Assembly: GCA_963699155.1 (NCBI GenBank) | Contig: OY969414.1 | Location: 555,757 to 619,756 of the forward strand | Reading direction: 5' to 3' | DNA from: an uncultured Chlamydiales bacterium | GTDB lineage: Bacteria > Chlamydiota > Chlamydiia > Chlamydiales > JAAKFR01 | Length of the DNA stretch: 64,000 nt | Shown: positions 9,549 to 61,586 of the stretch, piece after piece | Position numbering within the stretch: the stretch's first letter is position 1 | Layout of the letters: each line of letters begins with the position of its first letter | Position numbers and translations under genes: made by a program | Notes under the pieces: model-generated | What the model was told of the DNA's origin: nothing | What the model saw: the letters and a program-made list of their open reading frames with translations, nothing else | Databases searched by the model: none

Positions 9549-9679
9549 GCCGCCTCCTCACAATTAGGAAATTCAAGACTACAAATCTACAGCACGCTCT
9601 CATTTTGCGCAAAAGTTCGCCTATTTTCGCGAGGCAACAGAGTTCAATAAGATCAGTAACTTTTTATTTTAAAAATGGT

Positions 9680-9700
9680 TATAATAAGTTAAAAGGGAGG
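9680..9700 (+). promoter_or_regulatory. Candidate -10 box and ribosome-binding site of the NHLP precursor
   Basis: TATAAT at 9680-9685; GGAGG at 9696-9700, 5 nt before ATG 9706; no clear -35. Confidence 0.45.
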
Positions 9701-9705
9701 TGTTT

Positions 9706-10068
9706 ATGGAAGAAAAGCAAGCAGTATTAACTTTTAAGCAAGTATTAATCTTGAAGGCTTTGAAGGATCCGGAGTTTAAGAAAAAACTATTAGAAGATCC
9801 TAAAAAAGCCATTCAAGAGGAGTTTCAAATCACTCTACCCGAAGATCTGAAGATCAACGTTTTTGAAAACCAGGAAAAAACAGTGAACCTCGTGATTCCT
9901 TATGCTTCTGGGGAACTTTCTGATGAAGAGCTCGAAAATTTGGCCGGTGCTGGTGCTTTGGACGACATAGGGAATTGGTTTAAAGCGCGGGGTAAGGATA
10001 TCTCTGACTGGGCCACAGATTGGTGGAAAAAGCAAGGGACAACTGTCAAGCCAACGTGGAAGCTTTAA
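9706..10068 (+). CDS. NHLP leader-peptide family RiPP/bacteriocin precursor
   Basis: KALKDPEFKKKLLEDPKKAI...LPEDLKINVFE...LVIP...ELSDEELENLAGA leader followed by a 38-aa core. Confidence 0.92.
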   Translation: MEEKQAVLTFKQVLILKALKDPEFKKKLLEDPKKAIQEEFQITLPEDLKINVFENQEKTVNLVIPYASGELSDEELENLAGAGALDDIGNWFKARGKDISDWATDWWKKQGTTVKPTWKL

Positions 10069-11339
10069 AGAGCTTTCAAAAGGTGGGTGCCGACTCGCTC
10101 GGCGAGAACGGTGGGGAGTGTGATCGATCCGTCACCATTCTGGTTGTTTTCGAGGAGGGCGACCATGAGACGGGAGGTGGCGAGACCAGAGCCATTGAGG
10201 GTGTGGACCAGCTCTGGTTTGCCCCCTTTTTCACGGTAGCGAATTTGGGAGCGACGTGACTGGTAGTCGGTGCAGTTGGAGATGGAGGAGACCTCGTAGT
10301 AGCGGTTTTGGCCAGGCAGCCAGACCTCGACATCGACAGTTTTGGCTGCGGTGAAAGACATGTCTCCAGTGACGAGCTTGGCGAGGCGGTAGTGGAGGCC
10401 AAGCCCTTTGAGGATCTCCTCGGCCACATGGATCATCTCTTCGAAGATCTGTGCGCTCTGGTCAGGTTTGGTAAAGCAGAACATCTCGACTTTGTTGAAT
10501 TGATGGACGCGGATGAGACCCCGTTCTTGAGTACCTGCTGCGCCCGCCTCTTTACGGAAACAGGGTGTATAGGCGGCATACTTGATGGGAAGCTGCTCCG
10601 CCTCGAGGATTTCATCGTAGTGAAGGCCATTGAGAACCACTTCTGCGGTTGGAATGAGGTAGAGTGGCTGCTCACGATCGAGGACTTCATAATATTGGCC
10701 ATCGAATTTGGGGATCTGTCCCGAGCCGAACATGACAGGCGGGCGGACCAAGATGGGAGGCAGCCAAAATTCGAAGCCATTGAGTTGCTGAATCTCAATC
10801 AGGTAGTTGAGAAGGGCCCATTCGAGCTTAGCGCCCATCCCGCGATAGGCGGGCCAGCCGCTGCCTGAGGTTTTTGCCGTGCGCTGGAATTCGAAGAGAT
10901 GGTGGATTTCATTCAATTCCACATGATTTTTGAAAGGGAAATTGAAGGTAGGTTTTTCACCCACAGTTTTGATGATGACATTATCGGCGGGAGACTGCGA
11001 CTCTTTCACATCCTCCATCGGGATGTTGGGAATGCGCGAAAGAGCATCGGTGAGGGCAGTTTCGCTGGTGGTGAGCTCCTGGTCGAGCTGAGTGATGCGA
11101 TCGCCGATAGTGCGCACCTGTTCCATCAACTGGTCGGCCGGCTTCCCCGCCCGCTTTAAATCGCCTACCTGCTTTGAGGAGTCGTTCCGCTCCGATTTCA
11201 GCCGCTCCACCTCTGTCTTGATATGACGGACCTTTTCATCAAGTTCCAGCACGGCAGAGAGATCGATCTCGGGCTCTTTTGCACGCAATTTAGCTTCAAT
11301 CCGTTCCCTATCTTTGCGAATTAACTTGATATCGAGCAT
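10065..11339 (-). CDS. serS: Serine--tRNA ligase
   Basis: MLDIKLIR, LIPTAE, CFRKEAG, RVHQFNKVE, HTLNGSGLA. Confidence 0.98.
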   Translation of the reverse strand: MLDIKLIRKDRERIEAKLRAKEPEIDLSAVLELDEKVRHIKTEVERLKSERNDSSKQVGDLKRAGKPADQLMEQVRTIGDRITQLDQELTTSETALTDALSRIPNIPMEDVKESQSPADNVIIKTVGEKPTFNFPFKNHVELNEIHHLFEFQRTAKTSGSGWPAYRGMGAKLEWALLNYLIEIQQLNGFEFWLPPILVRPPVMFGSGQIPKFDGQYYEVLDREQPLYLIPTAEVVLNGLHYDEILEAEQLPIKYAAYTPCFRKEAGAAGTQERGLIRVHQFNKVEMFCFTKPDQSAQIFEEMIHVAEEILKGLGLHYRLAKLVTGDMSFTAAKTVDVEVWLPGQNRYYEVSSISNCTDYQSRRSQIRYREKGGKPELVHTLNGSGLATSRLMVALLENNQNGDGSITLPTVLAERVGTHLLKAL

Positions 11340-11367
11340 CTTAGTCCTCTATTTTATTTGGAATTAT

Positions 11368-12462
11368 ATGAGAGAGACAAAAGAGCAACAACTCTTTTTT
11401 ATGCAGTGGGCCATCCGTTTAGGGGAAAAAGGGCGCACGTCGGCGCCGCCTAATCCCTGGGTTGGCTGCGTGATTGTTAAAGAGGGAGAGATTGTGGGCG
11501 AGGGCTACCATGAGGCTCCTGGTAAGCCTCACGCTGAAAAAATAGCCCTCCAGAAGTCGGGACCCTTGGCAAAAGGGGCCACGGCCTATGTCAGTTTAGA
11601 ACCTTGTCCCCATCAGGGGAGAACCCCTCCATGTACAGACGCTCTTATTGCCGCCGGGATTAAACGTGTTTGCGTGCCGCTGCTCGATCCCGATCCCCAC
11701 GTCTCGGGTAAAGGAATCAAACAGTTAAAAGAGGCGGGCGTCGAAGTGGTGGTCGGCCTAGGCAAGGAGGAGGCTGAGAGGTCACTCCGCCCCTATCTGC
11801 ACCAAAGGCGTTTGCTCCGTCCTTTCTGTGTGATGAAGACAGCGATGAGTATCGATGGCAGAACAGCGGCGCAGGATGGCTCTTCTCAGTGGATCACTGG
11901 TGTTGCTGCAAGGAAAAATGGGCACCAGCTCCGCGCAGAATCGCAGGCCATCATGGTCGGCTCTGCGACAGCTCTCCATGACCTTCCACGATTAGACGTC
12001 AGGGGCATCGAAGTTGCGGTACAGCCCAAACGTGTGTTGATCGATTGGCAAGGAAAAGTGAGCCCCACAGGCCCTTTAGCCGATCTCACGATCGCCAAAA
12101 CAGTTCTCTTTACTCTATCGAAGAGCCATAAAGAGAGTTGGGAAGGGGCCGGAGCAGAGGCCCATCTTTTGGAAAAAAGAGAGCTCAAAACAGTGTTAGA
12201 GATCCTTGGGAAGGAAGGGATTCTTCAGCTGCTTGTAGAAGGGGGGAGTCGCTTGCATAGCGCACTGATGGCAGAGCAGCTCATCGATCAGATGGTCGTC
12301 TATATGGGAAACTGCCTCCTAGGTGATTCTGGGAAGCCCTTGCTGTCTAACTTTGTCGTTCCTTCGATCGTTAAAGCCCCACGCTGGTTCTTGGAGGGGG
12401 TCTATCGCTTCGATAATGATGTCCGATTAGATTTTTTGCCGGCGCGCCATCTCAGCAAATAG
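11368..12462 (+). CDS. ribD: Riboflavin biosynthesis deaminase/reductase
   Basis: PNPWVG, HAE, EPCPHQGRTPPC, SQWIT, VEGG; start moved to ATG 11368. Confidence 0.95.
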   Translation: MRETKEQQLFFMQWAIRLGEKGRTSAPPNPWVGCVIVKEGEIVGEGYHEAPGKPHAEKIALQKSGPLAKGATAYVSLEPCPHQGRTPPCTDALIAAGIKRVCVPLLDPDPHVSGKGIKQLKEAGVEVVVGLGKEEAERSLRPYLHQRRLLRPFCVMKTAMSIDGRTAAQDGSSQWITGVAARKNGHQLRAESQAIMVGSATALHDLPRLDVRGIEVAVQPKRVLIDWQGKVSPTGPLADLTIAKTVLFTLSKSHKESWEGAGAEAHLLEKRELKTVLEILGKEGILQLLVEGGSRLHSALMAEQLIDQMVVYMGNCLLGDSGKPLLSNFVVPSIVKAPRWFLEGVYRFDNDVRLDFLPARHLSK

Positions 12463-14637
12463 ACCGGACCGCTTGAGAAGCTCATCAAAGGTTCCCTCCT
12501 CGGTGATGACGCCTCGGTTCAGCAGATAGATGCGAGTGCACAGTTTCACTGTGTTGAGGCGGTGAGCGATCACCACGCGGCTGACGTGAAGCTCCTCAAT
12601 ATTTCTGCTGATCTGTTTCTGCGTGCGATTATCGAGTGCGCTCATCGCTTCATCGAAAAGCAAGATCTTCGGATTTGAGATCAGCGCTCTAGCGATCAAG
12701 AGGCGCTGCTTTTGTCCCCCAGATAGAGTCTCTCCACCGCTTGAGAGAAGCGTATGGAGCCCCATCGGAAACTTTTTTAGGTCATTGTCAAATGCTGCCA
12801 GATGAATGGCCTTTTCGACCTGCTCCTGGCTGTAGATCCCCCCACAGACCAGATTTTCATAAATAGTCCCTGCGAGGAGAGAGCCATTTTGCAGGACCAC
12901 GCCCAGTTGACGTCTGACTGAACGGAGATCGAGATGAGCCAGATCGGTGCCATCATAAGAGATAGTTCCCGTTTCAGGCTGCTCAAAGCCGAGAAGGAGG
13001 CGAATCAGGGTCGATTTTCCACTTCCCGAAGGGCCGACGATCCCGACAAATTCTCCCGCCTTCACAGAGAATGAGACATTGTGGAGAACATAGGGAGATT
13101 TGGTATCGTAGCGGAAAACGATCTGTTCTACTGCTAGATTTCCTTCTAGTGGGCCAGCCTCCCGCTTGCGAGGATCCACCTCGGGAGGTTCTTCAAAAAT
13201 GACGGCACCACGGATCCAAACGGGCTTGAGGACTTTGTAGAGATAGGAAACGGCAGGAATCGAGGTGATGATGGCGGCACTAAAGAAGCTGAAGGCGGTG
13301 ACAAATCCAAAAAAATCGCCTGCAGACAAAATTTTGTGAAAGGTGGGCATGCTTCCTTTGGACTGGTCCACAAAATTGATTACAACACTGAAAATGACGA
13401 AGGTAGACAAAATCGGAATCATCGAGAAAGTTGTTTCTATGGCGCTGTTGTAATATTGATTCTTGAGGTCATTTTTTTTGGCCTCCGCATAGAGTTGTGC
13501 CCAATGGGAAAAGGCTCTCTTCTCTGCACCAGAGACCCGAATTTTGGCGATGCCTGCGATCAGTTGCACGATGAAACCGTTGATTTTGCCTTTGATCTCA
13601 TAGGAGGCTCTCTGAAAGCCGACAATCCGATTTTGGCAAAAGAAATAGATGACTAGGCTCAAAGCGATGACCAAGATAGCAGCCATTGAGAGCGCAGGAC
13701 TAAACAGCACCATCACGATGAGGTAAAAAATTGAAAAACAGAGATTGAGTAAAAGAGAGACATAGTAGTTATTAAAGGCACGACGTGCGGTCACAAAGCC
13801 GTTAACGCGAGAGAAAAGATCGCCCACTGTAAAGCGTTTAAAGAAGCGGATAGGTAGTTTCAGCAGACGATCCCAGACGGCCGCCTCTAAGCGGTTTCCT
13901 GCAAGAGAGGTGATGCGGAAAACAAGAAATCCCTGGGTGAGTTGGTAGATCGCGGTGCTGAGAGCTGCTATCAAAAGAGCGATGCCCAATTGCACTAGAG
14001 CTTTTTCATTGAGGTCGGGGATCACCTTGCCGAAGATAAACTTACTACTGAATGGTAAAACAATGTTGAGAAGTGCGACGAGAGCGCCGATGAAAAAGAC
14101 AAAGGCGACCTTTTTGCCTTTTCCGAAGAAGGAAAATTTCATCGCATCTTTCCTCGTCAGCTTTTCGCTGGGAAATGAGCCATAAAATTCAAAACCTACC
14201 GGGGATATTTGTGCTGCGAGAGTAGCATCGACTTTTTGCTCTTTGCGATTGACTGGGTCAACGAGTGCATATCCTCCTCGATCGGTCCAAAGAAGAGCGA
14301 CTGGCTGGTGACGGGGACCTAAAAAGCCGATACAGTGTCCTCCATCTTCGAGATACCATTCTTCTTCCAAAGCAATCTGTCGATAACGGACCCCGGATGA
14401 CTCACAGATCGCGCGAATGCGGTCGGTAATATTGACGGAGCAGCTCTCCTCTTTAGGCTCTGTGAAAGGAATTTTGAGCGCCTGTCCTACAACAGTGCAG
14501 GCGAGAAAAAGAGGATCTTGTAAGAGTGATTCGGCACTGCCTTCTTCTTGAAGAAGCGAAGCGAGGGCCGCAAAGGACTCTGAGAGTGCTTTTTCTTCGA
14601 GGCGCTCTTTTTGAGTGATCTGATCTTTCTCAGCCAT
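12427..14637 (-). CDS. NHLP bacteriocin-system ABC transporter, permease/ATP-binding subunit
   Basis: DPLFLAC..VG.AL and SGVRYRQIAL..W..ED.G...PVALL N-terminal domain; TMD; GPSGSGKST, LSGGQKQR, LLFDEA; TGATG coupling to the upstream gene. Confidence 0.9.
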   Translation of the reverse strand: MAEKDQITQKERLEEKALSESFAALASLLQEEGSAESLLQDPLFLACTVVGQALKIPFTEPKEESCSVNITDRIRAICESSGVRYRQIALEEEWYLEDGGHCIGFLGPRHQPVALLWTDRGGYALVDPVNRKEQKVDATLAAQISPVGFEFYGSFPSEKLTRKDAMKFSFFGKGKKVAFVFFIGALVALLNIVLPFSSKFIFGKVIPDLNEKALVQLGIALLIAALSTAIYQLTQGFLVFRITSLAGNRLEAAVWDRLLKLPIRFFKRFTVGDLFSRVNGFVTARRAFNNYYVSLLLNLCFSIFYLIVMVLFSPALSMAAILVIALSLVIYFFCQNRIVGFQRASYEIKGKINGFIVQLIAGIAKIRVSGAEKRAFSHWAQLYAEAKKNDLKNQYYNSAIETTFSMIPILSTFVIFSVVINFVDQSKGSMPTFHKILSAGDFFGFVTAFSFFSAAIITSIPAVSYLYKVLKPVWIRGAVIFEEPPEVDPRKREAGPLEGNLAVEQIVFRYDTKSPYVLHNVSFSVKAGEFVGIVGPSGSGKSTLIRLLLGFEQPETGTISYDGTDLAHLDLRSVRRQLGVVLQNGSLLAGTIYENLVCGGIYSQEQVEKAIHLAAFDNDLKKFPMGLHTLLSSGGETLSGGQKQRLLIARALISNPKILLFDEAMSALDNRTQKQISRNIEELHVSRVVIAHRLNTVKLCTRIYLLNRGVITEEGTFDELLKRSGLFAEMARRQKI

Positions 14638-16790
14638 CAGGTGAGAGCCTCCTCGCTTTTCATCAGCTCTTGGTAGAGAGGGCATCTCTCTTTAAGCTCT
14701 GCATGTTTGCCACGATCGATCACTTTTCCCTCATCGAGAACAATGATCTCTTCGCAATCACGAATGGTGCTGAGACGATGGGAAATGATCAGGCTCGAGC
14801 ACCCTCGGAGCTTAATTTTTTGCAAAATTCTCTCTTCGGTATCGCTATCGAGAGAGCTTGTCGCTTCATCTAGGATAATGATGGAGGGATTCATGGCGAG
14901 AACGCGCGCGATTTCTAAAAGCTGACGCTGGCCACCACTAAAATTGGGTCCTCCCTCTAAAACGGGGCCGTCGTAGGCTTGTTCTCGACGGATGATTTCC
15001 TGATGGATCGTGGCATCGACGGCGCCCTGGATAATCTGCTCCTCAGGTAGAGAGCCATCCCAGAGTGTCAGATTATCGCGGATAGAGCCTTCAAAGAGAA
15101 AAATTTGCTGGTCCACCGAAGCCAGCGAGCCATTGATGATCCGCCGATCGATCTGCTCTGCCGGCCTCTCGTCGAATAGAATCTCTCCCTTCCAGGGATG
15201 GTAGAGACCCGTGATTAGCCGTCCAATAGTCGTTTTGCCGCAGCCTGAGGGGCCGACAAGAGCGATCGATTCTCCCGGTTTGAGATGGAGGTAGAGATTC
15301 TCGATCAGGGGAGCCGCCAATCGGCTATATCCGAAAGTTACAGCCTTCAGCTCAACTTCTCCTTTCAGTTTATCGATTGACCTTGATACCGTTTGTTGGT
15401 CGGTCAGCATCTGATCTACTGGGTAAGAAAGCACATCGTCGATGCGGTAGAGGCCCCCTTTGACATTTTGAATTTTTTGACCGAGATAGACAAAGCGCGA
15501 GATGGGGCGCAAAAAAATGTACATCAGAGTGAGGAGGCCCAGAAGCATCCCTAGACTCATTTTCCCTTCGATCACACGCGTGCCGCCTACTGTCAATACC
15601 ACTGCCGCTGCAACATATTGAGTGAAGGGTGGAAGGACGGTTAACCAGATATCCAATTTGCCGATCTGCTGCATGGAGTGAACTGTCTTGGAGAGGTAGC
15701 CAGCCCAACGGGCAAAGAAATCAGATTCGGCAGCGACCGCTTTGAGACTTTCGATATTTTGCAATCCTCCGATCGACATGCCCACCCTCTTCCCCATATC
15801 TTGCTGGAGCCGAATATTGGCATCGGTGCGCACGCGCCAGAGCCAAAACATCACCACGAGGTTGATGATTGCGGCAGCGATCCCAATGAAAGCGATGAGA
15901 GGATCATAGAAAAAGATAAGAGCGCCATAGGCGACGATGAGCAGAAGGTTGATCCAGGCCACTGCTAGATCTTGTGTCAGGGTAGTAATGACATTATCGT
16001 TGATTTGCAAGCGATAGCCGATCTCTCCACCATAGCGCTGGGCGTAGAACTCGATAGGTAAACGGAGAATATGCCAGAGGAAGCGGCTTGAGAGGCGAAT
16101 GCTCAACTTGCCATTGAGTCTAGCTAGATAATAGCCTTGGAGCGCCGTCAAAATCGCTGTCAGCGCCATAATAAAAAGAAGCCCCAGAAGAAATGCAGGG
16201 GCGGTGGAGGTGAGTCTTTTGACTAAGATCTCGTCGACAAAAAATTGGGTGAATGTGGGAAGGGCAATGCCAGGAACAAGGAGGAAGAGGCTGGCGAGAA
16301 AGAGGTAGCTTAAGGGGGCTCCACATCCTTCAAACCTTTTAAAAATCATTTGGAGGAAATGTTCTCCTGCGCCCCCTTGATGAAACTCAGGGCCCGGCTT
16401 GGCAACAATCAATGTGCCACTAAAATGGCTTGAAGCATCGCTCCAGCTGATTTTACGTGGACCTTGCGCCGGATCATTCACATAGAGATATTTATCTGAA
16501 AACCCTTCGACCACAAGGTATTGATGGAGATCCCAACTGATGAGGAAGGGAGCCTGGAATTTTTGGAGCTCTTCCAATGGCACTTTCTTCAAACTGGCTT
16601 CTAGACCATATCTTGTCGCTGCTTCGACAATATTCTCTGCACGGCTTCCATCTCTTGAGATACTGCAGGCGAGGCGCAACTCTTCTAGAGTTACATAACG
16701 ACCAAAATAGCCCAGAATCATGCCGAGCGCCGCTGCTCCCGATTCGATCGATTCCATCTGGATCATCGTTGGAGTGCGCGCCCGCTTCAT
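14637..16790 (-). CDS. NHLP bacteriocin-system ABC transporter, C39(-like) peptidase/permease/ATP-binding subunit with degenerate catalytic residues
   Basis: RTPTMIQMESIESGAAAL...RLACSISRDGS...NDPAQGPR C39 fold; TMD; GPSGCGKT, FSGGQRQ, ILDEATS. Confidence 0.92.
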   Translation of the reverse strand: MKRARTPTMIQMESIESGAAALGMILGYFGRYVTLEELRLACSISRDGSRAENIVEAATRYGLEASLKKVPLEELQKFQAPFLISWDLHQYLVVEGFSDKYLYVNDPAQGPRKISWSDASSHFSGTLIVAKPGPEFHQGGAGEHFLQMIFKRFEGCGAPLSYLFLASLFLLVPGIALPTFTQFFVDEILVKRLTSTAPAFLLGLLFIMALTAILTALQGYYLARLNGKLSIRLSSRFLWHILRLPIEFYAQRYGGEIGYRLQINDNVITTLTQDLAVAWINLLLIVAYGALIFFYDPLIAFIGIAAAIINLVVMFWLWRVRTDANIRLQQDMGKRVGMSIGGLQNIESLKAVAAESDFFARWAGYLSKTVHSMQQIGKLDIWLTVLPPFTQYVAAAVVLTVGGTRVIEGKMSLGMLLGLLTLMYIFLRPISRFVYLGQKIQNVKGGLYRIDDVLSYPVDQMLTDQQTVSRSIDKLKGEVELKAVTFGYSRLAAPLIENLYLHLKPGESIALVGPSGCGKTTIGRLITGLYHPWKGEILFDERPAEQIDRRIINGSLASVDQQIFLFEGSIRDNLTLWDGSLPEEQIIQGAVDATIHQEIIRREQAYDGPVLEGGPNFSGGQRQLLEIARVLAMNPSIIILDEATSSLDSDTEERILQKIKLRGCSSLIISHRLSTIRDCEEIIVLDEGKVIDRGKHAELKERCPLYQELMKSEEALT

Positions 16791-17602
16791 CAGGGATTCA
16801 TTCTCCAGATGGGGGTCACATAGGAGATCGGGGCCCGTGCATTCAAAACGAAAAGGGCTGTTCCTACATTTTGAGGGGGAATCGGCTCAGGTGGCCCCAA
16901 ACCAGACGTCCATTTCAACCCGCTTGCCGTATGGGCATCTTTCAACGGTTCTATCGCCACGATCATGGTGGGCTGATTTTCTGTAAAATAGTCGATGAGC
17001 GCCGGGTTACCCAGCAAATTGAGCAACTCATTTCTGGAGGCCACATAGGGAGAAACAGACTTAACAATGGCCTCGACGGAGCCATATTTTTGTGCATTCA
17101 CCCCTTCCGGTTTGATATAGACCTTCGTTCCACTCTTGATGTCGCTGCCCCTTTCAATCGGGATAAAGGCAAAGAAGAGAAAATTCCCTTCGCCTCTCTG
17201 GATTAACAATAAAGGATCGCCCGCATCGATGTGTGAACCAACCGTCGCATAGAAATCGACGACTTTACCCTTATGACTCGCCTTAGCTACCCACTTTTTT
17301 TCCTCTTGAGCAGTTACGGTGAGCAGTTCTTGCCCAGGCTCAACAGTGCTATTAACCGCTACACGCGCTTCCGTCACACTCCCCGCAATTTGACTCCGTA
17401 CGATTTCAAACCCTTGCTCATTCAAGAAGATCGTCTTTGTCTCATAAGTATTCGGAATCACCCCAAAGAAGGCCCAAATGACCAACCCCAAAACCAGCAT
17501 CCCTGTCAGCGCAAGCGCGATCCATCCCTTCGACCCCACCACAATCAGCCGCTTATCCAGCTCCTCAGGCGAGGTGACTTTTTCGAAAGCCTTCGTCTCC
17601 AT
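16790..17602 (-). CDS. NHLP-system secretion (HlyD-like membrane fusion) protein, short form
   Basis: KAFEKVTSPEELD, single TM, lipoyl halves, YGSVEAIVKSVSPY, SGLKWTSGLGPP; start set at ATG 17602 after a G-rich RBS. Confidence 0.88.
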   Translation of the reverse strand: METKAFEKVTSPEELDKRLIVVGSKGWIALALTGMLVLGLVIWAFFGVIPNTYETKTIFLNEQGFEIVRSQIAGSVTEARVAVNSTVEPGQELLTVTAQEEKKWVAKASHKGKVVDFYATVGSHIDAGDPLLLIQRGEGNFLFFAFIPIERGSDIKSGTKVYIKPEGVNAQKYGSVEAIVKSVSPYVASRNELLNLLGNPALIDYFTENQPTMIVAIEPLKDAHTASGLKWTSGLGPPEPIPPQNVGTALFVLNARAPISYVTPIWRMNP

Positions 17603-17694
17603 CCCCCTTTCTATAATCGGAATCTTAAATGGAGGCAATGGCTCCTCGTTTTCTTCTCTTGATCAAAACTTAATATGCTCGTAAGATGGTGCTT

Positions 17695-19077
17695 ATGGCT
17701 TTTGAAAAGGCTAGTTCTGTTATCCCTTCGCAAGAAGGGTTTCTACGAGTGATTCAGCCTGAAGTAGCACCTCAAGCAATTCCTGTGAGCCCGTCCGATC
17801 TCTTTCAGGGGCTTGAGCCTATGCTCAAAGCCCACCTATTTTCCTTTATACCTGTCGGTGCGTTGTTTAGGAGCATGCTCGTCTCGACTCATTGGAGGAC
17901 CCTTCTCATTTCTCTCCCAGATAGGCATAACAAATTTAAACTGCTTGTGGGGATTTTAAAAGAGGCGAAAGCCCTGTTGCAGAAAGTTTCTGACGCGAGT
18001 CATTACTATTTCCGCTTTTTAAGATTGGAAATGTTGGTGGACAAAGTACAAGCACAGCAAACAGTATGCACGAAAGTACCCATCTTGGATGCAGTGTCGA
18101 CTCCAGGTGGAGCGTTGGCATATCATCGCCAGCTTCTATCAATCGTTTTTGAACTAGATCCCGCACTGGTTCATTCTTCTGACCTAACTGATTTTAAGGA
18201 ACTGATTTGGGTACTTCAGCAAAAGGAGGCTCCAAAAAGAGATGCCATTTTGCAAAGAGAGGTTAGGCTTGCACTCTCCTTTTCCCATCCACATCAGCTT
18301 TTAGGGGTGTTAGAAGTTGCCAGGGAGCTGCTAGATCCTGAAGTTGTAAAAGAGCTTTTGCATCGAGCGAAAGAGGAAACTCTGCATATTTTTGATCCAT
18401 CTAGTAGAAAACATCATCTTTTACGAGCAGTTGAATTAAGCCTTGTGCTTGATTCCGATCAGGTGACTTTTGCAGAGACAAAAGCTTTTTTAGCCAGAGA
18501 GTCAGACCTTGAGTGGCAAGCCCTAGGGCGCTTGCGGGTGGCAAAAAGAGAGCTAAAACAAAATCTTCATCAACCAGAGCAATGTAAAAAAATTGTTCAG
18601 ATGACCCTCACTGAGATTTTGCCACATCTAAAAACGCACCAAGTTGAAATTATTGAAATGATGGCGAGCTTCGATTGGAAAATGGCGCTCGAATCAATGC
18701 CAATCGTTCACAATCCACTAGAAGCTCAAATTGCTTTGGAAGCTATTTTCCTAAAAGTGGCCAGAGAAGATTTCGCTGCGTTCACATCTGGAATCCCGGC
18801 AGCAAGTGCCAAGCGGATCACTCAATTCTTAGGCTGGCTAGCGATTGCTAAAAGAGAACTGGAGTTAGCTCTTCCAAGTGCGCAAGCCTCACTTCAAAAG
18901 GCGCTCTTATTACAAGAGGGAGCGCCTAAACAATCTCATGATTTCATGTTTCACAGAATCTCTGGCGTAGAGGCCTATTTTAGCATCGAAAGTTCTCTCG
19001 CCACTGCAAAAAAGATTGAAGACCAGCATCTGCGCTTAGATGCCCTCCTTAACCTCGCTCAGCTAATTGCTGAGTAA
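17695..19077 (+). CDS. F-box-like domain protein, paralog 1
   Basis: FQGLEPMLKAHLFSFIPVGALFRSMLVSTHWRTLL; shares GWLAIAKRE and LRLDALL..AQLIA with paralogs 2-5. Confidence 0.75.
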   Translation: MAFEKASSVIPSQEGFLRVIQPEVAPQAIPVSPSDLFQGLEPMLKAHLFSFIPVGALFRSMLVSTHWRTLLISLPDRHNKFKLLVGILKEAKALLQKVSDASHYYFRFLRLEMLVDKVQAQQTVCTKVPILDAVSTPGGALAYHRQLLSIVFELDPALVHSSDLTDFKELIWVLQQKEAPKRDAILQREVRLALSFSHPHQLLGVLEVARELLDPEVVKELLHRAKEETLHIFDPSSRKHHLLRAVELSLVLDSDQVTFAETKAFLARESDLEWQALGRLRVAKRELKQNLHQPEQCKKIVQMTLTEILPHLKTHQVEIIEMMASFDWKMALESMPIVHNPLEAQIALEAIFLKVAREDFAAFTSGIPAASAKRITQFLGWLAIAKRELELALPSAQASLQKALLLQEGAPKQSHDFMFHRISGVEAYFSIESSLATAKKIEDQHLRLDALLNLAQLIAE

Positions 19078-19088
19078 AATTTTAGATA

Positions 19089-20324
19089 TCAATTGGAGGC
19101 AATGTAGCTTTTGGCATCGATCAGTTTTGCAGGAAAGCCAAGCTCGTTTTTGGCCTGTCGCAGAGCTCGCTCTGCATCTTCCTCACCTTCCCACGTGACC
19201 TGAATGATTTCGTGGTTGCCAAAAAGATCTTGGGTGATGAAGTCGATCTCATAGCCATCAGCAGTTTGATAGTAAAAGACCCTCTTTTCTTGACGGCGCA
19301 AGTCGAGATAAACCTGATTTTCCAACAATTTTCCAAAATTGGATGAGAGGTTGAAGGTATTGGCCACTAAGAGACCGTTATCGATGGCATAGATCTTTTT
19401 GGGTGCTGTCTGTAATCGTCTCAAAGATTCCGTAAAGAGGGGAACCGCAAAAATTAGAAAAGCATCCTCCAGATAGTCAAGGTAGGAATAAAGCGTGTCC
19501 TTTCCCACCTTATAACCCTGACTCTTGATGTCATTGAAGAATTTATTGATGGAAAAAGGCGCTCCCACACTCTTGAGTAGGAATTGGATGAAGTACTTCA
19601 GTAGGGCCACATTGCCGATTTGATGCCTTTCAATGATATCTCTGAAAATCACTGTTTCTACATAATTTTGGAGGGTCTCGGTCAGTTCATGCGGAGACAT
19701 CGTTTGCACGCCGGGGAAACCGCCAAAGCGAATAAATTCCAGTAAATAGGCCCTATAGTGATCATACGTTTTTTTCCCGAAAGGCTTACGAGGAAGCTCA
19801 TGGCCGTGAGCGAGTAGGAATTCGGAATAGTCGTAGGGTAAAATTTCGATCGCAAGAGATCGCCCCCTGAGCGAGGTGGCAATCTCCTTACTCAGAAGTT
19901 TGGCAGAGGAGCCCGTCACATAGATTTGGATGTTTTTGGAATCAATTAGCCTCCTTAATACTAAAGGCCAACCCTCCACATTCTGTATCTCGTCCAAAAA
20001 CAGGTAGCAGCATTGATTGTGGAGTTGAGGATGAAGCGTGTACCAGCCATCGATCATCTCTCCTAGCATTTTTTGATTGATAGGTAACAGCCTGTCATCT
20101 TCAAAGTTGATATAGAAAATGGTCTCTTGGCTTTGGCCTGAAGCGATCAGCTCCCTGATGGTTTGAAACAAGAAATAGGTTTTTCCCGACCTTCTCATCC
20201 CAATGGCAACCTTGATGACATTCTTTGCCTCTGGAAAATGGTAACGCCTCGGTACACTTTGAGCTGTCAGCTTGAGAGCTGCCCAAAACTCTTCCTGGAG
20301 CGTAAGTAAGATCTCCTTATTCAT
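19089..20324 (-). CDS. AAA ATPase (AAA_14 + DUF4143-type)
   Basis: GMRRSGKT, INFEDDRL, FLDEIQ, TGSSAKLL, GGFP, KKIYAIDNG, EIDF. Confidence 0.85.
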   Translation of the reverse strand: MNKEILLTLQEEFWAALKLTAQSVPRRYHFPEAKNVIKVAIGMRRSGKTYFLFQTIRELIASGQSQETIFYINFEDDRLLPINQKMLGEMIDGWYTLHPQLHNQCCYLFLDEIQNVEGWPLVLRRLIDSKNIQIYVTGSSAKLLSKEIATSLRGRSLAIEILPYDYSEFLLAHGHELPRKPFGKKTYDHYRAYLLEFIRFGGFPGVQTMSPHELTETLQNYVETVIFRDIIERHQIGNVALLKYFIQFLLKSVGAPFSINKFFNDIKSQGYKVGKDTLYSYLDYLEDAFLIFAVPLFTESLRRLQTAPKKIYAIDNGLLVANTFNLSSNFGKLLENQVYLDLRRQEKRVFYYQTADGYEIDFITQDLFGNHEIIQVTWEGEEDAERALRQAKNELGFPAKLIDAKSYIASN

Positions 20325-20327
20325 AGT

Positions 20328-20379
20328 TATCCTTCCTAATAAGGAAAGAATAGCCTGTCTCTATCCTTCCTTGCAAGGA
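20328..20379 (-). promoter_or_regulatory. Promoter of the AAA ATPase with two operator-like repeats
   Basis: Minus strand TTGCAA-N18-TATTCT; repeats TATCCTTCCTAATAAGGA (20328-20345) and TATCCTTCCTTGCAAGGA (20362-20379). Confidence 0.55.
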
Positions 20380-20428
20380 CAGCTTTTCTTAATCAGACCT
20401 TTATATTATTAATATATAGTGCTCTCTT

Positions 20429-21793
20429 ATGGCCGTTCAAAGACCCTCTTCGAGTCCTTCACTTAATAGCCTGGCTGAGGCTGCGGAGCCTTCGGCAAGT
20501 CTCTCTGTTCAGCCGCCCTCGTTTCAGGCTCTTCCCACGGAGCTTCAAATCCACGTGTTTACCTGTTTGCCTATCGGTGAATACTTTTGGTGCATGCTTG
20601 TGTCGACTCAATGGCAAAGGCTGGTCATTGCTCTTCCTGGGAAGCGGCATGACAAATTTAAACTCCTTGTGGGGATTCTAAAAGAAGCGAAAGCCCTTCT
20701 GCAGCAAGTCGATGATGCCAGGGCTTGGTTCATGCCATTTTTAAGATTGGAAGCTTCTCTAGATAGGGAACAAGCTAAGCAGACCTTGGACCTAAATATA
20801 CGAATCTTCAGAACAGGGATCAATCTGGGACAAAAACTGACATTTTTCCGCCAGTTTATTCCTGCCGTTTTTACGATCGATCCGGGTAGGAAGAGTTTGG
20901 TTGTTAATTCAACGATTTTTGGGGAGCTCATTTGGGCAATTGCAGAAGGCGATCCTGCAAAAAGAGATGCCGTTTTGCAAAGAGAAGTTAATAGCGCAAA
21001 TGGTTCTGTAGATCCAGATCAGCTTTTAGGCTTGGCTGAAGTTGCCAAGAAGCAGATGGGCCCTACAGATCTTAAGAAGATCTTGGATCGAGCGAAAGAT
21101 GCAGTTCTGGCTCTTCCTATCGAAAAAAGAAAAGAGCCTCTTTTACGAGCGATAGAGCTCACTCTCGAGCTCGATTCCGATCAGGTAGCTTTTACGGAGA
21201 CAACAGCCTTCTTGGCCAGAGAAACTAGTTTCCTGCAGTACCAAGGCTTGTTTCTACTAAAAATGAAAATGCTACAACAAAATCGTCATGACGAGAGCCG
21301 AGTTCAAGAAATTGTCCAGAATGAAATCTGCCCCCTTGTCGATAAACCATCGTTTGAGATGACAGTAGAATGGATGGATGCTGTGGCGAGATTAGATTGG
21401 AAATTGGCGCTAGATCACTTAGCCCATTTTCAGGATCTAAAAAGCCTAAGTCTTGCTTTAGAAGCCATTTTTCTGAGAGCGGTCAATAAAGACCTTCTTG
21501 CGCTCCAAACCGAAGTTGAAGAGAGTGACGATCGGCTATTTCAGTTCTTTGGTTGGCTCGCCATTGCAAAAAGAGAGTGGGAACTAGGCTTATCGGGTGC
21601 AGGTGAAACGCTCAAGAAAGCGATATCAATCATTCCAGAGGGACAAGAAACAATGTTGCACAGAGTCTCTCTCCTAGAGGCTCATATGAACAACATCGAA
21701 AGTGCCCTCACAACGGCGCGTAAGATTCAAAATCGAGAACTGCGACTGGATGCCCTCCTTTACATCGCACAATTAATTGCTAATAGGTGTTAA
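20429..21793 (+). CDS. F-box-like domain protein, paralog 2
   Basis: Ser/Pro-rich N-terminus, then FQALPTELQIHVFTCLPIGEYFWCMLVSTQWQRLV. Confidence 0.8.
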   Translation: MAVQRPSSSPSLNSLAEAAEPSASLSVQPPSFQALPTELQIHVFTCLPIGEYFWCMLVSTQWQRLVIALPGKRHDKFKLLVGILKEAKALLQQVDDARAWFMPFLRLEASLDREQAKQTLDLNIRIFRTGINLGQKLTFFRQFIPAVFTIDPGRKSLVVNSTIFGELIWAIAEGDPAKRDAVLQREVNSANGSVDPDQLLGLAEVAKKQMGPTDLKKILDRAKDAVLALPIEKRKEPLLRAIELTLELDSDQVAFTETTAFLARETSFLQYQGLFLLKMKMLQQNRHDESRVQEIVQNEICPLVDKPSFEMTVEWMDAVARLDWKLALDHLAHFQDLKSLSLALEAIFLRAVNKDLLALQTEVEESDDRLFQFFGWLAIAKREWELGLSGAGETLKKAISIIPEGQETMLHRVSLLEAHMNNIESALTTARKIQNRELRLDALLYIAQLIANRC

Positions 21794-56101: not shown

Positions 56102-57706
56102 ATGACAATTCAAGACTCAACCCACTCCATCGTTAAGAACGCTAAACGTTTTTTTTCAGGAACGGCCATCAGCCGAGCGACAGGTCTCGGCAGGGAAGTG
56201 GTCATGGCGATTGCTTTCGGCACCCAGCCTCTCATCGCCGCTTTCTGGATGGCCTTTCGCTTTGCCCACCTCCTCCGTCGCCTCTTTGGTGAGGGTGCTC
56301 TAAACGCCGCCTTTATCCCCCACTTTGAGACTCTACGCAAAGAGAATGGCTTTCTTGGGGCCCGCTTTTTCTATGATCTTTCGACCGGCATCTCCCTCTT
56401 CTTGTTGCTGATCACCCTGCTCGCAGAAGCCATCCTAGGGGCCTTCCTACTCTTTATGCCGATGAGCCAGGGAAATTATGATGTGGTCAAGTTGACGATG
56501 CTGATGCTACCGGCGCTCGTCTTCATCTGTCTCTATGCTCTCAATAGCGCGCTTCTCAACTGTGAAAAAAACTATTTTTTACCGAGTGTCGCCCCCGCCC
56601 TACTCAATATCATCTGGATAGGCGCCATCCTGATTCTCTGGAAATTGCCCCTCGCAAAAGCGATCGATTATTTGGCGATGACCGTCGTCCTTGCCTTTGT
56701 CTTGCAATGGATTGTCACCGTTCCTCCTGTCTTCCGCTATCTGCGCCTCGAGCTCGGGGATAAGTGGAGGAGCCACTCCTTCTCAGGGCGCGAAATTTTG
56801 AAAATCCTCCGCCCCTTTCTTCTCGGCCTGGTCGGCGTTGCTGCCACACAGATCAATACCGCCTTAGATACCCTCTTCGCCCGTGCGGCTAATGAACAGG
56901 GTCCTGCCTATTTATGGTATGCCATCCGCATCCAGCAGTTGCCTCTCGGCCTACTTGGGGTGGGATTAACAGGTGCTCTTCTTCCCCCCATTTCACGTGC
57001 GGTTGAGAGGGGCGATCGCGAACAATCCCTCCACTTCCTCAACTTTGCCCTCTCGAGAACACTCCTCTTCATGATTCCGCTGACAGCAGCTATCTTTGTT
57101 CTCGGCTTTTCAGGGATCAATCTCGTCTATGGTCATGGAGAATTCTCTCAAGAGGCCACTTTCCAAACGACACTCTGCTTATGGGGTTATGGGCTGGCGC
57201 TTGCACCGATGACGCTCGTCCTCGTCTCTGCCTCAGCTTGCTATGCCCATAAGAACTACCGCACCCCGACCCTCTTTTCAGCGATCACCGTAGGCCTCAA
57301 CATCGCTCTCAACGCCCTCTTTGTCTACGGATTTCATCTCGGAGCGGTCAGCATCGCTCTCGCCACCACCCTCGGCGCTTGCGTGAATGGCGCTCTTCTC
57401 CTCTCTCTTCTGAAAAAGAACTATGGCTTAAAGTGGGAAAGACTCTTTTCTTCGACCATTAAAGTGAGCATCGCCTCACTTATTGCCATTGCCGCAACAG
57501 CAGCAGTTGGCTCCCTCTATCACGACCAAACCCTCGCCTGGCTTCTGGGGCATGACTGGAGCCCATTTTCAAGAAGCTTGATCACACAGCTGACCACCTT
57601 TGGAATGATGGCTCTCAGCTTTACGCTCTCTTTTCTCCTCTCAGCCCAGCTCCTGAGGATAGAACTCTTTTCTTGGTCCCGCTTGCGCTTTGCCAGAAGA
57701 GCCTAA
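56102..57706 (+). CDS. murJ: Lipid II flippase MurJ/MviN
   Basis: SRATGLGRE, RRLFGEGAL..AFIP, RIQQLPLG, many TM helices. Confidence 0.95.
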   Translation: MTIQDSTHSIVKNAKRFFSGTAISRATGLGREVVMAIAFGTQPLIAAFWMAFRFAHLLRRLFGEGALNAAFIPHFETLRKENGFLGARFFYDLSTGISLFLLLITLLAEAILGAFLLFMPMSQGNYDVVKLTMLMLPALVFICLYALNSALLNCEKNYFLPSVAPALLNIIWIGAILILWKLPLAKAIDYLAMTVVLAFVLQWIVTVPPVFRYLRLELGDKWRSHSFSGREILKILRPFLLGLVGVAATQINTALDTLFARAANEQGPAYLWYAIRIQQLPLGLLGVGLTGALLPPISRAVERGDREQSLHFLNFALSRTLLFMIPLTAAIFVLGFSGINLVYGHGEFSQEATFQTTLCLWGYGLALAPMTLVLVSASACYAHKNYRTPTLFSAITVGLNIALNALFVYGFHLGAVSIALATTLGACVNGALLLSLLKKNYGLKWERLFSSTIKVSIASLIAIAATAAVGSLYHDQTLAWLLGHDWSPFSRSLITQLTTFGMMALSFTLSFLLSAQLLRIELFSWSRLRFARRA

Positions 57707-58157
57707 TCGGCAGCGTCGAGAAGTCTGTGGCTCTCTTCCTGTACACTTGCCAACTCCACACTTCTTGCTTCATTTTGATTTTGGGTTCTACAAACGGTGA
57801 CTGTTCTATAAGCTACACAAGCCGTACAACCCACCCCTAAAAGATTCAAGATTCCCAATCCTATATACCAGATATCGATTAGATCACTTTGATAGCAGGC
57901 GCGAACATGCTCTTTTTGTGCAGTAGAGCATTCCGTAATATTTGTTACACAAGCCGAATATCTTCTTTGGGCTTCAGTACAAAGCCTCTCATTCTTACTG
58001 CCTACATAGGAGAAGTGAAAAGAAAGGATAGTGCCCACTGAACTTATCACAAATAAGGTGTTAATCGCCGCCGTCGCCAGAAGTTTTCGCTTCGACGCGT
58101 ATCCGATTGCCACCAAATAGAGAGCGCTCTTTGAGCTCCTGAAACAGCAGCTGCCAT
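57703..58157 (-). pseudogene. Frameshifted paralog of the 58173-58625 membrane protein
   Basis: ATG 58157 (MAAAVSGAQRALSIWW) is one base out of frame with the body (KLLATAA...YVGS..RLCTEA...VELASVQEES); one base missing near 58096. Confidence 0.7.
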
Positions 58158-58172
58158 AATCAACTCCTTATA

Positions 58173-58625
58173 TTAATCGGGGGGACTATCGAGGAGGGCT
58201 TGGCTCTCTTCCTGAACACTAGCCAACTCCACTCTTCTTGCTGCCTCTTGCCTTTGAGCTTTACAAATGGTGATTGTTTTAGAAGCAACGCGCACGATGT
58301 ACATACACGAAAGAAGAATCACTGCTCCTAGTCCGACATAATACATATCAACTAGATCAGATTCATGACAGGCTGCTAAGCGTTCTCTTTGAAGAGATTC
58401 ACATACTGTCATATTCCCAGCCGTATATCTTGCCGAGGCTTCTGTGCAGAGCCTATCATCCGTGCTGCCTACATAGCGCTTGTGTAAAACAACGATAGCA
58501 ACAGCTGAACCAACAGCTGCCAAAGCGGCAACACCTGCCGATACCAAATGTTTTGGTTCTAACCTCATTCCTTCTTTCCACCAAAAGGGGGTGGCTCTTT
58601 GAGCTCCTGAAGCACCACTAGCCAT
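58173..58625 (-). CDS. Two-TM membrane protein with a Cys-containing loop
   Basis: AAGGAG RBS before ATG 58625; two hydrophobic helices; clear paralogy with the adjacent copy. Confidence 0.75.
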   Translation of the reverse strand: MASGASGAQRATPFWWKEGMRLEPKHLVSAGVAALAAVGSAVAIVVLHKRYVGSTDDRLCTEASARYTAGNMTVCESLQRERLAACHESDLVDMYYVGLGAVILLSCMYIVRVASKTITICKAQRQEAARRVELASVQEESQALLDSPPD

Positions 58626-58740
58626 AATCAACTCCTTTAAAAGACCCCTTCTGCTGTTCGCAAGATGTTATGAAAGAGGTCTAATTTTGTTGAGCAGGAA
58701 TGATACGAGAAAAATTTTAATTGGCAAGAGCTTTTGGCAT

Positions 58741-58836
58741 GAGCAAGCTCCCTACAGTACGGCTTTTTACGCCGTCCTGTATTGGCCATTGAAGGGCGGT
58801 GCAGAGCACCGCACTCCAGGGAAGTCGCTGCGCTCG
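58741..58836. repeat. REP-like palindromes downstream of rpsD
   Basis: GCGGTGC-AGA-GCACCGC-ACTCCA hairpin; GAGCAAGCTCCCTAC; ACGGC-N7-GCCGT. Confidence 0.45.
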
Positions 58837-58846
58837 TTCTAAAAGA

Positions 58847-59473
58847 TTAGGTCTTATGCGACAGGAACTCGCAGACGACGGGGATGTTGATGGGGAGCGG
58901 GAGCTGCCCTTCGATCTGGTCGATCTCGGGGGCCATCAGCAGTTTGCCTGCGAAGTTGTCTTTGTTGAGCTCGAGGTAGGCAGGGGTTTGCTGAGCGGCG
59001 GTCTCGAGGGAGTCGACGATCGCTTTGCTTTTACGAGACCTCTCGCGGATGGAGATTTCCATGCCGGGCTTCACGAAGAAGGAGCGGCGATCGACCTTTT
59101 TTCCGTTGACGAGGATGTGGCCGTGAGAGACGAGCTGCTGAGCGCCAAAGATGGTGCGGGCAAAGCGGAGGCGGTAAACAACGGTGTCCAGGCGGCACTC
59201 AAGGCGCTGCATGAAGAGCTGAGAGGTGTTGCCTTCTTGAGCGACAGCCTCTTTGAACATCTTGACTATCTGCTTTTCCATCAGCATGCCATAACAGGCT
59301 TTGAGCTTCTGCTTCTCTTCGAGCTGAATGCCATAGTCCGACTTTTTACGACGACGTGCCCCATGTTGGCCGGGAGGGTTGGCCTTGCGCAAAAGAGGGT
59401 TGCGGGCGCGGCCGAAAATATTGGCTCCGAATTTGCGGGCGATGCGGTTTTTTGGACCTCGATAACGTGCCAT
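58847..59473 (-). CDS. rpsD: 30S ribosomal protein S4
   Basis: [44 protein letters not shown]. Confidence 0.98.
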
Positions 59474-59575
59474 TCCTTCTCCTAAAGAAATCGAAAATAA
59501 TAAGAGGAGAGATCATATCCAGGGGTGCGATTTTCTACAATAGATTTATTCCTCAGAGGCTTGTATACTACTCCT

Positions 59576-61355: not shown

Positions 61356-61379
61356 GGGAGGAAGCTTATCAGAAAAGGA

Positions 61380-61565
61380 CTATTCTTCGGAGCCCTCTTC
61401 CTCGATCACCTCTTGAGCCGCACTCTTAATGGTTTCCAGCCCCTCTGGGAAGCCGATCAACCGCAAAAGCTGGTCGACATAGTGGATTTCACTCGATAAC
61501 TGGTCGTTCACAAATTCTAGATAGGCAATTTTTTTTTCTAGCGCGTTTGTAGGTTGCATCGTCAC
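61380..61565 (-). CDS. Small conserved chlamydial hypothetical protein
   Basis: LEFVNDQL..E..YVD.LLR.IGFPEGL; GGAGG RBS. Confidence 0.7.
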   Translation of the reverse strand: MTMQPTNALEKKIAYLEFVNDQLSSEIHYVDQLLRLIGFPEGLETIKSAAQEVIEEEGSEE

Positions 61566-61586
61566 CTCCTCGTTGGACAGTGAACT

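Follow-up and report, generated by a model that had tools for sequence, protein, structure and literature searches.

The stretch of DNA analyzed here (the window, 64,000 nucleotides; G000:C1:555757-619756) comes from G000, the genome of an uncultured Chlamydiales bacterium, which is assembled as a single contig of 2,399,326 bp with 47.5% GC. It carries a gene for a precursor peptide with a nitrile hydratase leader peptide (NHLP) domain and, 2.4 kb from it, three genes for an NHLP-type exporter. We found that the C39 peptidase domain of this exporter has lost both residues of its catalytic dyad and that the exporter genes are intact in two species. Our favored reading, drawn from sequence and held with a probability of about one in two, is that the window would encode a leader-binding, non-cleaving NHLP exporter that is maintained by selection and is a diverged paralogue within a genome-wide system of 17 precursors.

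The export genes in the window

All three exporter genes lie on the reverse strand: a hairpin-less HlyD-type adaptor (membrane fusion protein; 16790-17602), an ATP-binding cassette transporter with an N-terminal C39-like domain (ABC1; 14637-16790), and a second transporter with a degenerate N-terminal domain (ABC2; 12427-14637). These open reading frames (ORFs) and that of the precursor lie where an earlier note on this DNA had placed them, and the precursor and both transporters belong, as it had proposed, to the NHLP families by their NCBIfam scores. ABC1 (717 aa) continues from its C39-like domain into a transmembrane domain (TMD) and a nucleotide-binding domain (NBD) and scored 903.6 against TIGR03796 (cut-off, 853.3). 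ABC2, which also has a TMD and an NBD, is 736 aa long from the ATG at 14637 and scored 770.8 against TIGR03797 (cut-off, 709.4). In Pfam, ABC1 matched Peptidase_C39 (PF03412; 93.9 bits, cut-off 22), ABC_membrane (PF00664), and ABC_tran (PF00005). The longest ABC2 ORF begins at 14685; the ATG at 14637 overlaps the ABC1 stop codon and has GAGGAGG upstream. Both TGATG stop/start overlaps claimed for the triad (at 16790 and 14637) were read directly in the sequence, at 16792-16788 between adaptor and ABC1 and at 14639-14635 between ABC1 and ABC2. Both transporters retain intact Walker A, signature, Walker B, and H-loop motifs.

The adaptor is 270 aa long from the ATG at 17602, or 282 aa from a TTG at 17638. 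It matched the adaptor model TIGR03794 in two separate stretches with a score of 143.2, slightly below the cut-off of 156.2, because the whole alpha-hairpin of ~135 to 140 aa has been deleted, cleanly and in frame. An AlphaFold model of the adaptor (pLDDT 85, pTM 0.70) has an N-terminal transmembrane helix followed by beta domains, with no long helical hairpin, and its best fold matches in the PDB were chains of BesA (E = 1.4e-11, TM 0.51). The earlier note was right that the adaptor is short and had taken this as a sign of repurposing. We ruled that sign out: hairpin-less adaptors of 253 to 294 aa occur at 16 of the 27 chlamydial loci at which an upstream ORF was found, and 14 of these 16 accompany a live C39 domain. 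One of them lies in a classic thiazole/oxazole-modified microcin (TOMM) cluster of G013, a genome of the same family (L058:6479-16663), together with a live C39-ABC1 and an ABC2; this cluster has two 93-aa NHLP precursors with Cys-bearing cores, a SagC/D fusion (TIGR03604, TIGR03882), and SagB (TIGR03605).

ABC2 of the window is without the ~230-aa N-terminal extension that is present in all six other ABC2s compared. A passage in Wang et al. 2011 (PMC3140520) describes a long N-terminal extension in cyanobacterial transporters. Pfam gave nothing above threshold for four ABC2 N-terminal pieces, three with the extension and the short one of the window.

Loss of the peptidase dyad and recurrence of serine

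The C39-like domain of ABC1 (residues 1 to 135; 16386-16790, reverse strand) was read in alignments that include LahT150 (6mpz), its best solved relative (E = 8.8e-33). The ECG and NH motifs of LahT150 correspond to ESG and HQ in ABC1. Ser17 (TCG, 16742-16740) stands in for the catalytic Cys and Gln90 (CAA, 16523-16521) for the catalytic His, with a His89 one position earlier, while the oxyanion Gln11 and Asp106 are retained. The loss of the dyad that the earlier note had described was thus borne out by the alignments and by the codons. An active C39 peptidase has a Cys nucleophile and a His base; ABC1 has neither at these positions and keeps the match to the PF03412 fold. These observations support the view that the triad is genuinely an exporter of the NHLP type, having a short adaptor and a C39 domain that is predicted to be catalytically disabled.

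Serine at the nucleophile position recurs outside the window. We aligned the best 120 database matches to the C39 region with 12 chlamydial rows. Among these 132 rows the nucleophile column holds Cys in 126 and Ser in 6, with nothing else, and the His column holds His in 127. The six Ser rows represent five distinct proteins (of ~131): the window ABC1, its counterpart G003a in a genome of the same genus (G003), P0035, P0107, and P0118. P0107 stands for Reyranella and relatives, in which all seven loci of this kind (L070 to L076; 80 to 100% identical) have Ser, encoded by TCC, and have R, Q, Q, Q, A, E, and E at the His position. In a tree of 46 ABC1 sequences, the Ser forms of Reyranella and of P0035 are separate from each other and both placed far from the chlamydial clade. 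A Cys-type ABC1 is also present in two of the four Reyranella genomes searched; in the other two, a recognizable C39 motif occurs solely in Ser-type matches, the other strong match starting at model position 128. The NHLP matches in these four genomes were all below the cut-off and far from the exporter.

Within the chlamydial genus, the Ser codon is TCG in G000 and AGT in G003. Each is one step from TGY, and the two belong to the two unconnected sets of Ser codons, so that two separate Cys-to-Ser changes would take fewer nucleotide steps than a single change and a later codon switch. We read the invariable Ser upon loss of Cys as a probable need to keep the leader pocket while abolishing cleavage, since a freely decaying residue would not always turn into Ser. 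At the aligned position, some deposited PCAT1 chains have Ala (6v9z and 7n87) or Ser (8vp9), which we take to be engineered substitutions of the catalytic Cys.

The same serine could be a working nucleophile in a Ser/His/Asp protease that still removes the leader. Such a protease might be suspected from the strict presence of Ser wherever Cys has been lost, from G003a, which has His and Asp beside its Ser, and from the position of His89 in the window, one residue ahead of the canonical place. However, Gln occupies the canonical His position in the window, and R, Q, A, or E does so in the Reyranella loci, which leaves no conserved base for the Ser, and a neighboring residue on a strand would point the opposite way. 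Cys-to-Ser replacement generally inactivates peptidases of the papain fold. We consider a serine protease the least probable of the explanations weighed here.

Relatives in the Chlamydiota and selection on the exporter

In a sample of 400 genomes of the phylum, an NHLP-leader match was found in 51 (39 over the cut-off), with 0 of 29 in the small genomes of family f19, and a full-length ABC1 homologue (E <= 1e-120) was found in 62. G003 alone among the 400 has an ABC1 more than 55% identical to that of the window. The catalytic Cys and His are both present in 26 of the 28 chlamydial ABC1 loci read, the exceptions being the window and G003. The G003 locus is syntenic with the window; its order is seryl-tRNA synthetase, RibD, ABC2 (965 aa), ABC1, and a 253-aa adaptor, followed by ribBA and ribH. 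G003a is 62% identical to the window ABC1 and has Ser at the nucleophile position, with His and Asp kept. No NHLP gene was found near this locus or on its contig. Another genome of the genus, G002, does not have this exporter locus.

A metagenomic sister locus with the same synteny, L118, encodes an ABC1 (P0020) that is also 62% identical to that of the window and has an intact Cys (TGC) and His. Its adaptor (274 aa) is hairpin-less yet passes TIGR03794 (161.8 bits). Directly upstream, and overlapping the adaptor start, is an ORF of 108 aa whose match covers the NHLP model in full and stays under the cut-off (32.1 bits, E = 7.8e-8). Since L118 keeps Cys, His, and an NHLP-like precursor in the operon, loss of the Cys coincides with loss of the operon's own precursor. 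The tree of 46 sequences unites all chlamydial ABC1s in a single clade (SH-aLRT 100), within which the window ABC1, G003a, and P0020 form a sub-clade (100) without internal resolution. Judged by these alignments and by gene order, the window triad is a diverged paralogue whose synteny is conserved in its congener G003.

The triad is under purifying selection. For the ortholog pair of window and G003, dN is 0.31 and dS is saturated, which leaves dN as the sole basis of comparison between the two genomes. Across ABC1, identity between the pair is 53.3% in the C39 domain, 62.8% in the TMD, and 66.3% in the NBD, and dN is 0.42, 0.30, and 0.27, respectively. In four Cys-type pairs, conservation of the C39 domain equals or exceeds that of the TMD, and in two such pairs dN is the same for the two domains (0.21 versus 0.22; 0.316 versus 0.316). 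Because C39 dN exceeds that of the TMD and NBD here and equals TMD dN in the Cys-type pairs, constraint on the window C39 domain is relaxed but not absent. Decay of the genes, which the earlier note had named as a concern for its proposal, is contradicted by the intact ORFs and ATPase motifs and by this 62% identical ortholog.

Several observations weigh against a selected exporter. The C39 domain evolves ~1.4 times faster than the rest of ABC1, and the window has lost the His and the ABC2 N-terminal extension, both of which G003 keeps; together, these could mark progressive decay. A third ABC1/ABC2-like copy in G000 has already decayed. It survives as remnants at L057:4504-6482 (G000 2187521-2189469), 10 kb upstream of a second exporter locus described below, and comprises a piece 42% identical to ABC1 residues 339 to 712 with two in-frame TAA stops and an ORF with an NBD alone on the opposite strand. 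The RNA polymerase beta-prime gene (L015:2166-5681, G000 ~1242165-1245680) appears as a row of at least four ORFs that differ in frame. Assembly indel errors or real frameshifts may lie behind this, and it limits how far any gene of G000 can be called intact or broken. The nearness of precursor and triad, finally, is unconserved and weakly non-random.

Some of these points would suit a functionless duplicate on its way to loss, from which dyad, His, ABC2 extension, and operon precursor have gone in turn. The losses are indeed stepwise along L118, G003, and G000, and the faster C39 domain, the decayed third copy, and the absence of the locus from G002 fit as well. A relic of this kind is nonetheless quite unlikely in our judgment. 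Two species whose proteins differ at 38% of residues both keep the three ORFs unbroken and translationally coupled, dN lies between 0.31 and 0.51 against saturated dS, and every ATPase motif is intact. Moreover, the nucleophile position holds Ser and not a random residue, reached through different codons, and the pattern is kept in seven Reyranella genomes.

Precursors, a second exporter, and maturases across the genome

A search of G000 with TIGR03793 gave 31 matches, 11 of them over the cut-off, and 30 of these merge into 17 ORFs. Four of the ORFs have a single NHLP domain and 13 have two in tandem. The 16 genes besides that of the window (loci L011 to L023; for example, L021:7041-7631, L013:7078-7605, L020:6917-7495, and L020:9264-9854) are dispersed amid housekeeping genes. 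In 15 of the 17 ORFs the last leader ends in a conserved ...EL(S/T)(D/E)EEL...GG-type site, with no such site in the other two; tandem-leader proteins have the GG site at the end of the second leader only. The cores of the 15 are 22 to 55 aa long and Cys-free in 13 cases. Most have a pI of 8.4 to 12, many are hydrophobic and Gly-rich, and many resemble a single transmembrane helix. Tandem NHLP leaders were considered as a novelty and dropped: a profile search at E <= 1e-10 brought up 1853 representatives, and of the 150 best matches most extend across both NHLP domains. This exhaustive search supersedes a word-based search with one tandem-leader protein, which had returned only itself. Genes for rve/HTH_21 integrases and IstB/IS21 proteins adjoin several NHLP genes (L016, L019, L020); these insertion sequence genes hint at how the family spread around G000.

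A second NHLP exporter locus lies at 2198513-2206495 of G000 (in L024, G000:C1:2194000-2212000) and encodes a TolC-like protein, an adaptor, an ABC1, and an ABC2. This ABC1 has a C39 match of 129.6 bits with ECG and NH motifs, that is, with Cys and His intact. The adaptor is 434 aa long with a full hairpin (TIGR03794, 199 bits), and the ABC2 has 1000 aa. The TolC-like protein is over the cut-off for PF02321 and scored just 52 bits with TIGR01844. Transposase genes flank the locus on its downstream side. G000 has ten ORFs of the outer membrane efflux protein (OEP)/TolC family. The earlier note had reported no tailoring enzyme, TolC, immunity gene, or active protease. For positions 9706-17602 this is correct; for the genome it fails for TolC, with ten OEP ORFs, and for the protease, with the live C39 domain of the second exporter.

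The missing maturase, in turn, proved to be a property of the whole genome. YcaO and LanC each had 0 matches in G000, and no Nif11 leader exceeded the cut-off, the best reaching 13.5 bits. No radical S-adenosylmethionine (SAM) enzyme of the type acting on ribosomally synthesized and posttranslationally modified peptides (RiPPs) was found in G000: each of the 11 radical-SAM ORFs matches a housekeeping family (MiaB, MtaB, RimO, MqnC, MqnE/CofH-like, HemN, HemW, LipA, two RlmN, and EpmB/KamA-like), 3 of them meeting curated cut-offs via broader family models alone or missing by 0.4 bits. As far as described enzyme families go, G000 thus contains no TOMM, lanthipeptide, or proteusin cluster, having no YcaO/SagBCD, LanM/LanC, or RiPP radical-SAM enzyme. 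Taken genome-wide, GG leaders, a dedicated C39-ABC exporter, and no modification enzymes match the description of unmodified, class II-like bacteriocins, and we predict a system of that kind.

In the 111 ORFs lying within ~5 kb of the remaining 16 precursor genes, Pfam detected neither a RiPP enzyme nor another dedicated peptide exporter of the C39-ABC type. The other transport genes in these neighborhoods encode a resistance-nodulation-division (RND) pump, major facilitator superfamily carriers, an ABC-2 pair, an alanine symporter, and solute-binding proteins. The RND operon (AcrB-type pump, adaptor, and OEP; L011:1270-6903, G000 ~57269-62900) stops 50 bp short of a gene for a tandem-leader NHLP protein, which is read from the other strand. 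Directly upstream of another NHLP gene (L014:7190-7540) is a gene for a leucine-rich repeat protein with a novel E3 ligase (NEL) domain (L014:4571-7033), an architecture typical of injected effectors.

A genome with so many candidate membrane-active peptides might need protection from them. The Ser-type exporter could be an immunity or housekeeping pump that expels mature, mis-inserted, or uncleaved peptides from the producer's inner membrane, shielding it from 15 membrane-active peptides. Consistent with this, hydrophobic, Gly-rich cores that seek membranes are numerous, the 111 ORFs near the precursors include no recognizable separate immunity gene, and a Cys-type exporter accompanies the Ser-type one in G000, G003, and two of the four Reyranella genomes. 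However, the other two Reyranella genomes, with a recognizable C39 motif in Ser-type matches only, do not fit that pairing, and nothing indicates that the pump acts on mature peptides and not on leaders. Known immunity ABC pumps, of the LanFEG type, belong to a different ABC class. On these grounds we think a self-protection pump unlikely.

The window precursor and its neighborhood

The precursor gene of the window (9706-10068, forward strand) encodes 120 aa from its ATG and passes the NHLP-leader model TIGR03793 (69.1 bits; cut-off, 50.9). The leader spans approximately residues 10 to 81 and terminates in ...ELSDEELENLAGAG. This end aligns with the GG sites of the paralogues, giving a double-glycine-type site, and is followed by a core of ~37 to 38 aa that is Trp/Lys-rich and Cys-free (pI 9.3, GRAVY -0.91). 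The nearest paralogue within G000 is 59% identical. Upstream, at 9672-9705 on the forward strand, a TATAAT box and a GGGAGG Shine-Dalgarno sequence a few bases 5' of the ATG were read from the sequence and form a putative promoter and ribosome site; the TATAAT box is not in the list from a consensus promoter scan, which gave 7 promoters against 6.1 expected in shuffled sequence and thus no excess.

Two ORFs separate the precursor from the triad: one like seryl-tRNA synthetase (10065-11339, reverse strand) and one like RibD (11314-12462, forward strand), both named from reading their translations only. The same neighbors are present in L055 and L118. These two ORFs (10065-12462) are housekeeping genes outside the export system and serve as synteny anchors common to G003 and L118. 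Beside the syntenic exporter loci of G003 and L118 there is no such precursor gene at this place, and a precursor would lie as near to the triad in ~6 to 7% of random placements in G000. Because the nearness is unconserved and within reach of chance, we do not treat the precursor as the dedicated cargo of the triad.

This bears on the claim of the earlier note that precursor and exporter form a self-contained system, in which the adjacent peptide would be exported uncleaved because the organism has no protease, TolC, or maturase. The distance of 2.4 kb, the good expression signals of the precursor, and the lack of any known maturase family in the genome are what such a system would show. Nevertheless, G000 also encodes an exporter with an active C39 domain, ten proteins of the OEP family, and 16 more precursors, and the precursor is missing beside the syntenic loci, with adjacency by chance at ~0.06 to 0.07. 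We therefore abandoned the claim of self-containment as very unlikely. As targets of the peptide, the earlier note had put forward, as a possibility, co-infecting bacteria and host or inclusion membranes.

On the other side of the exporter, at 17686-19077 and 20429-21793 (both on the forward strand), are two paralogous ORFs of ~455 to 463 aa with similar N-termini. The first of these, the one scanned, matched nothing in Pfam or NCBIfam. Between the two ORFs sits an AAA_14/DUF4143 ATPase gene (19089-20324, reverse strand). Where the window has the ORFs of 17686-21793, G003 and L118 carry ribBA and ribH. Elsewhere, G000 has two strong nucleotide-transporter (TLC) genes, as against 0 of 14 control genomes, and encodes a CT021-family protein, a CesT chaperone, and a secretin, which fits a chlamydial origin.

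Discussion

We propose that the window exporter has changed from a processing machine into a receptor. The domain with Ser17 and Gln90 would dock NHLP leaders without cutting them, as a non-catalytic C39-like leader receptor comparable to the C39-like domain of HlyB-type exporters, and ATP hydrolysis would then drive the leader-bearing cargo across the inner membrane. Most of the 17 NHLP genes encode, behind a GG site, a short core that is poor in Cys and cationic or hydrophobic; these cores would be exported unmodified in the manner of class II bacteriocins, with cleavage and secretion falling to the canonical second exporter and its TolC-like protein, full adaptor, and live C39 domain. From the comparisons above, we infer leader binding and transport without cleavage by the window exporter, with a cargo among the 17, and likewise cleavage at GG and secretion of unmodified peptides by the second exporter.

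A broader proposal is that Ser-for-Cys NHLP exporters form a recurrent natural class of leader-recognizing, non-cleaving translocators. Once a precursor has been lost, selection would repeatedly turn the protease into a Ser-bearing receptor, and the NHLP domain would serve as an uncleaved secretion signal. Conversion would then have happened at least three times on the tree, with the differing codons suggesting that it happened twice within this chlamydial genus. We offer this generalization tentatively and regard it as rather unlikely. If it were true, in this chlamydia full-length single- and tandem-leader proteins with membrane-seeking tails would be delivered to the envelope or to a host-facing compartment, by a peptide or protein secretion route undescribed for Chlamydiota.

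NHLP exporters are usually viewed as cleave-and-export machines. If the protease-dead form is selected and its Ser recurrent, as our favored reading of a non-cleaving exporter has it, the window would show a processing exporter turning into a receptor-type exporter. A similar transition probably underlies the C39-like domain of the exporters of RTX toxins. Beyond the exporter itself, the genome, with 17 genes for leader-bearing peptides, a pair of exporters, and no modification enzymes, holds a candidate system by which amoeba- or soil-associated chlamydiae might deal with competitors or hosts.

A literature search on the nitrile hydratase leader peptide in chlamydiae returned nothing, and none of the titles and abstracts found deals with a Ser-type NHLP exporter. 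Passages in three papers touch on the subject: Haft et al. 2010 (PMC2887384) places Victivallis in a "chlamydia group," PMC9666466 lists "RiPP-like" clusters for several families of chlamydiae, with none for the Chlamydiaceae, and PMC13229535 gives one predicted "proteusin" cluster in a Hydra symbiont. In print, such chlamydial loci were found only as "RiPP-like" or "proteusin" pipeline calls (passages of PMC9666466 and PMC13229535). Taken at the level of its sequence, the window locus is a natural, conserved, and apparently protease-dead NHLP exporter within a large system of predicted unmodified peptides.

Comparison with known systems

The export triad of NHLP and Nif11 systems, as set out in passages of Haft, Basu, and Mitchell 2010 (PMC2887384), consists of the families TIGR03794, TIGR03796, and TIGR03797, with 1 to 12 copies of NHLP-leader precursors per genome. 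The window has the same three families in the same order, in a genome with multiple NHLP precursors. It differs in that ABC1 has other residues in place of the catalytic Cys and His, the adaptor is hairpin-less and below the cut-off, no precursor lies in the operon, and the genome has no maturase and 17 precursors, 13 of them tandem.

Among solved proteins, ABC1 resembles peptidase-containing ABC transporters: its C39 domain resembles LahT150 (6mpz), and it aligns end to end with PCAT1 (4ry2, 6v9z, 8vp9) and ComA (3k8u, 8hf4). In contrast to the Ala and Ser of PCAT1 chains, the Ser of the window is natural and conserved. With the HlyB-type RTX exporters (7sgr, 8dck) the window shares an N-terminal domain of the C39 fold without the catalytic Cys, in an ABC exporter that works with an HlyD-type adaptor. 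The C39-like domain of HlyB is a substrate receptor and not a protease; to our knowledge, the nucleophile replacement in HlyB is not Ser. Unlike the HlyB clade, the window ABC1 scores 362.2 against a TIGR01846 cut-off of 725.55 and sits in the chlamydial NHLP ABC1 clade, and its likely substrates would be GG-leader peptides rather than RTX proteins.

The adaptor is most like BesA (4kkt, 4kku, 4kks) of Borrelia burgdorferi, its best fold match, which we take to be the known hairpin-less periplasmic adaptor of Borrelia; the two are 12 to 13% identical in sequence. BesA serves an RND pump with a TolC-like partner in a tripartite assembly, and for this reason we did not adopt the view that absence of the hairpin means absence of an outer membrane partner.

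The closest parallel to the replaced dyad is in the Reyranella-type ABC1s (L070 to L076; P0107, P0035, P0118). Like the window ABC1, they have Ser for Cys and a residue other than His at the His position, and they pass TIGR03796. Unlike it, they fall in separate clades, and at L075 the adaptor (433 aa) has its full hairpin and the ABC2 N-terminal extension is kept.

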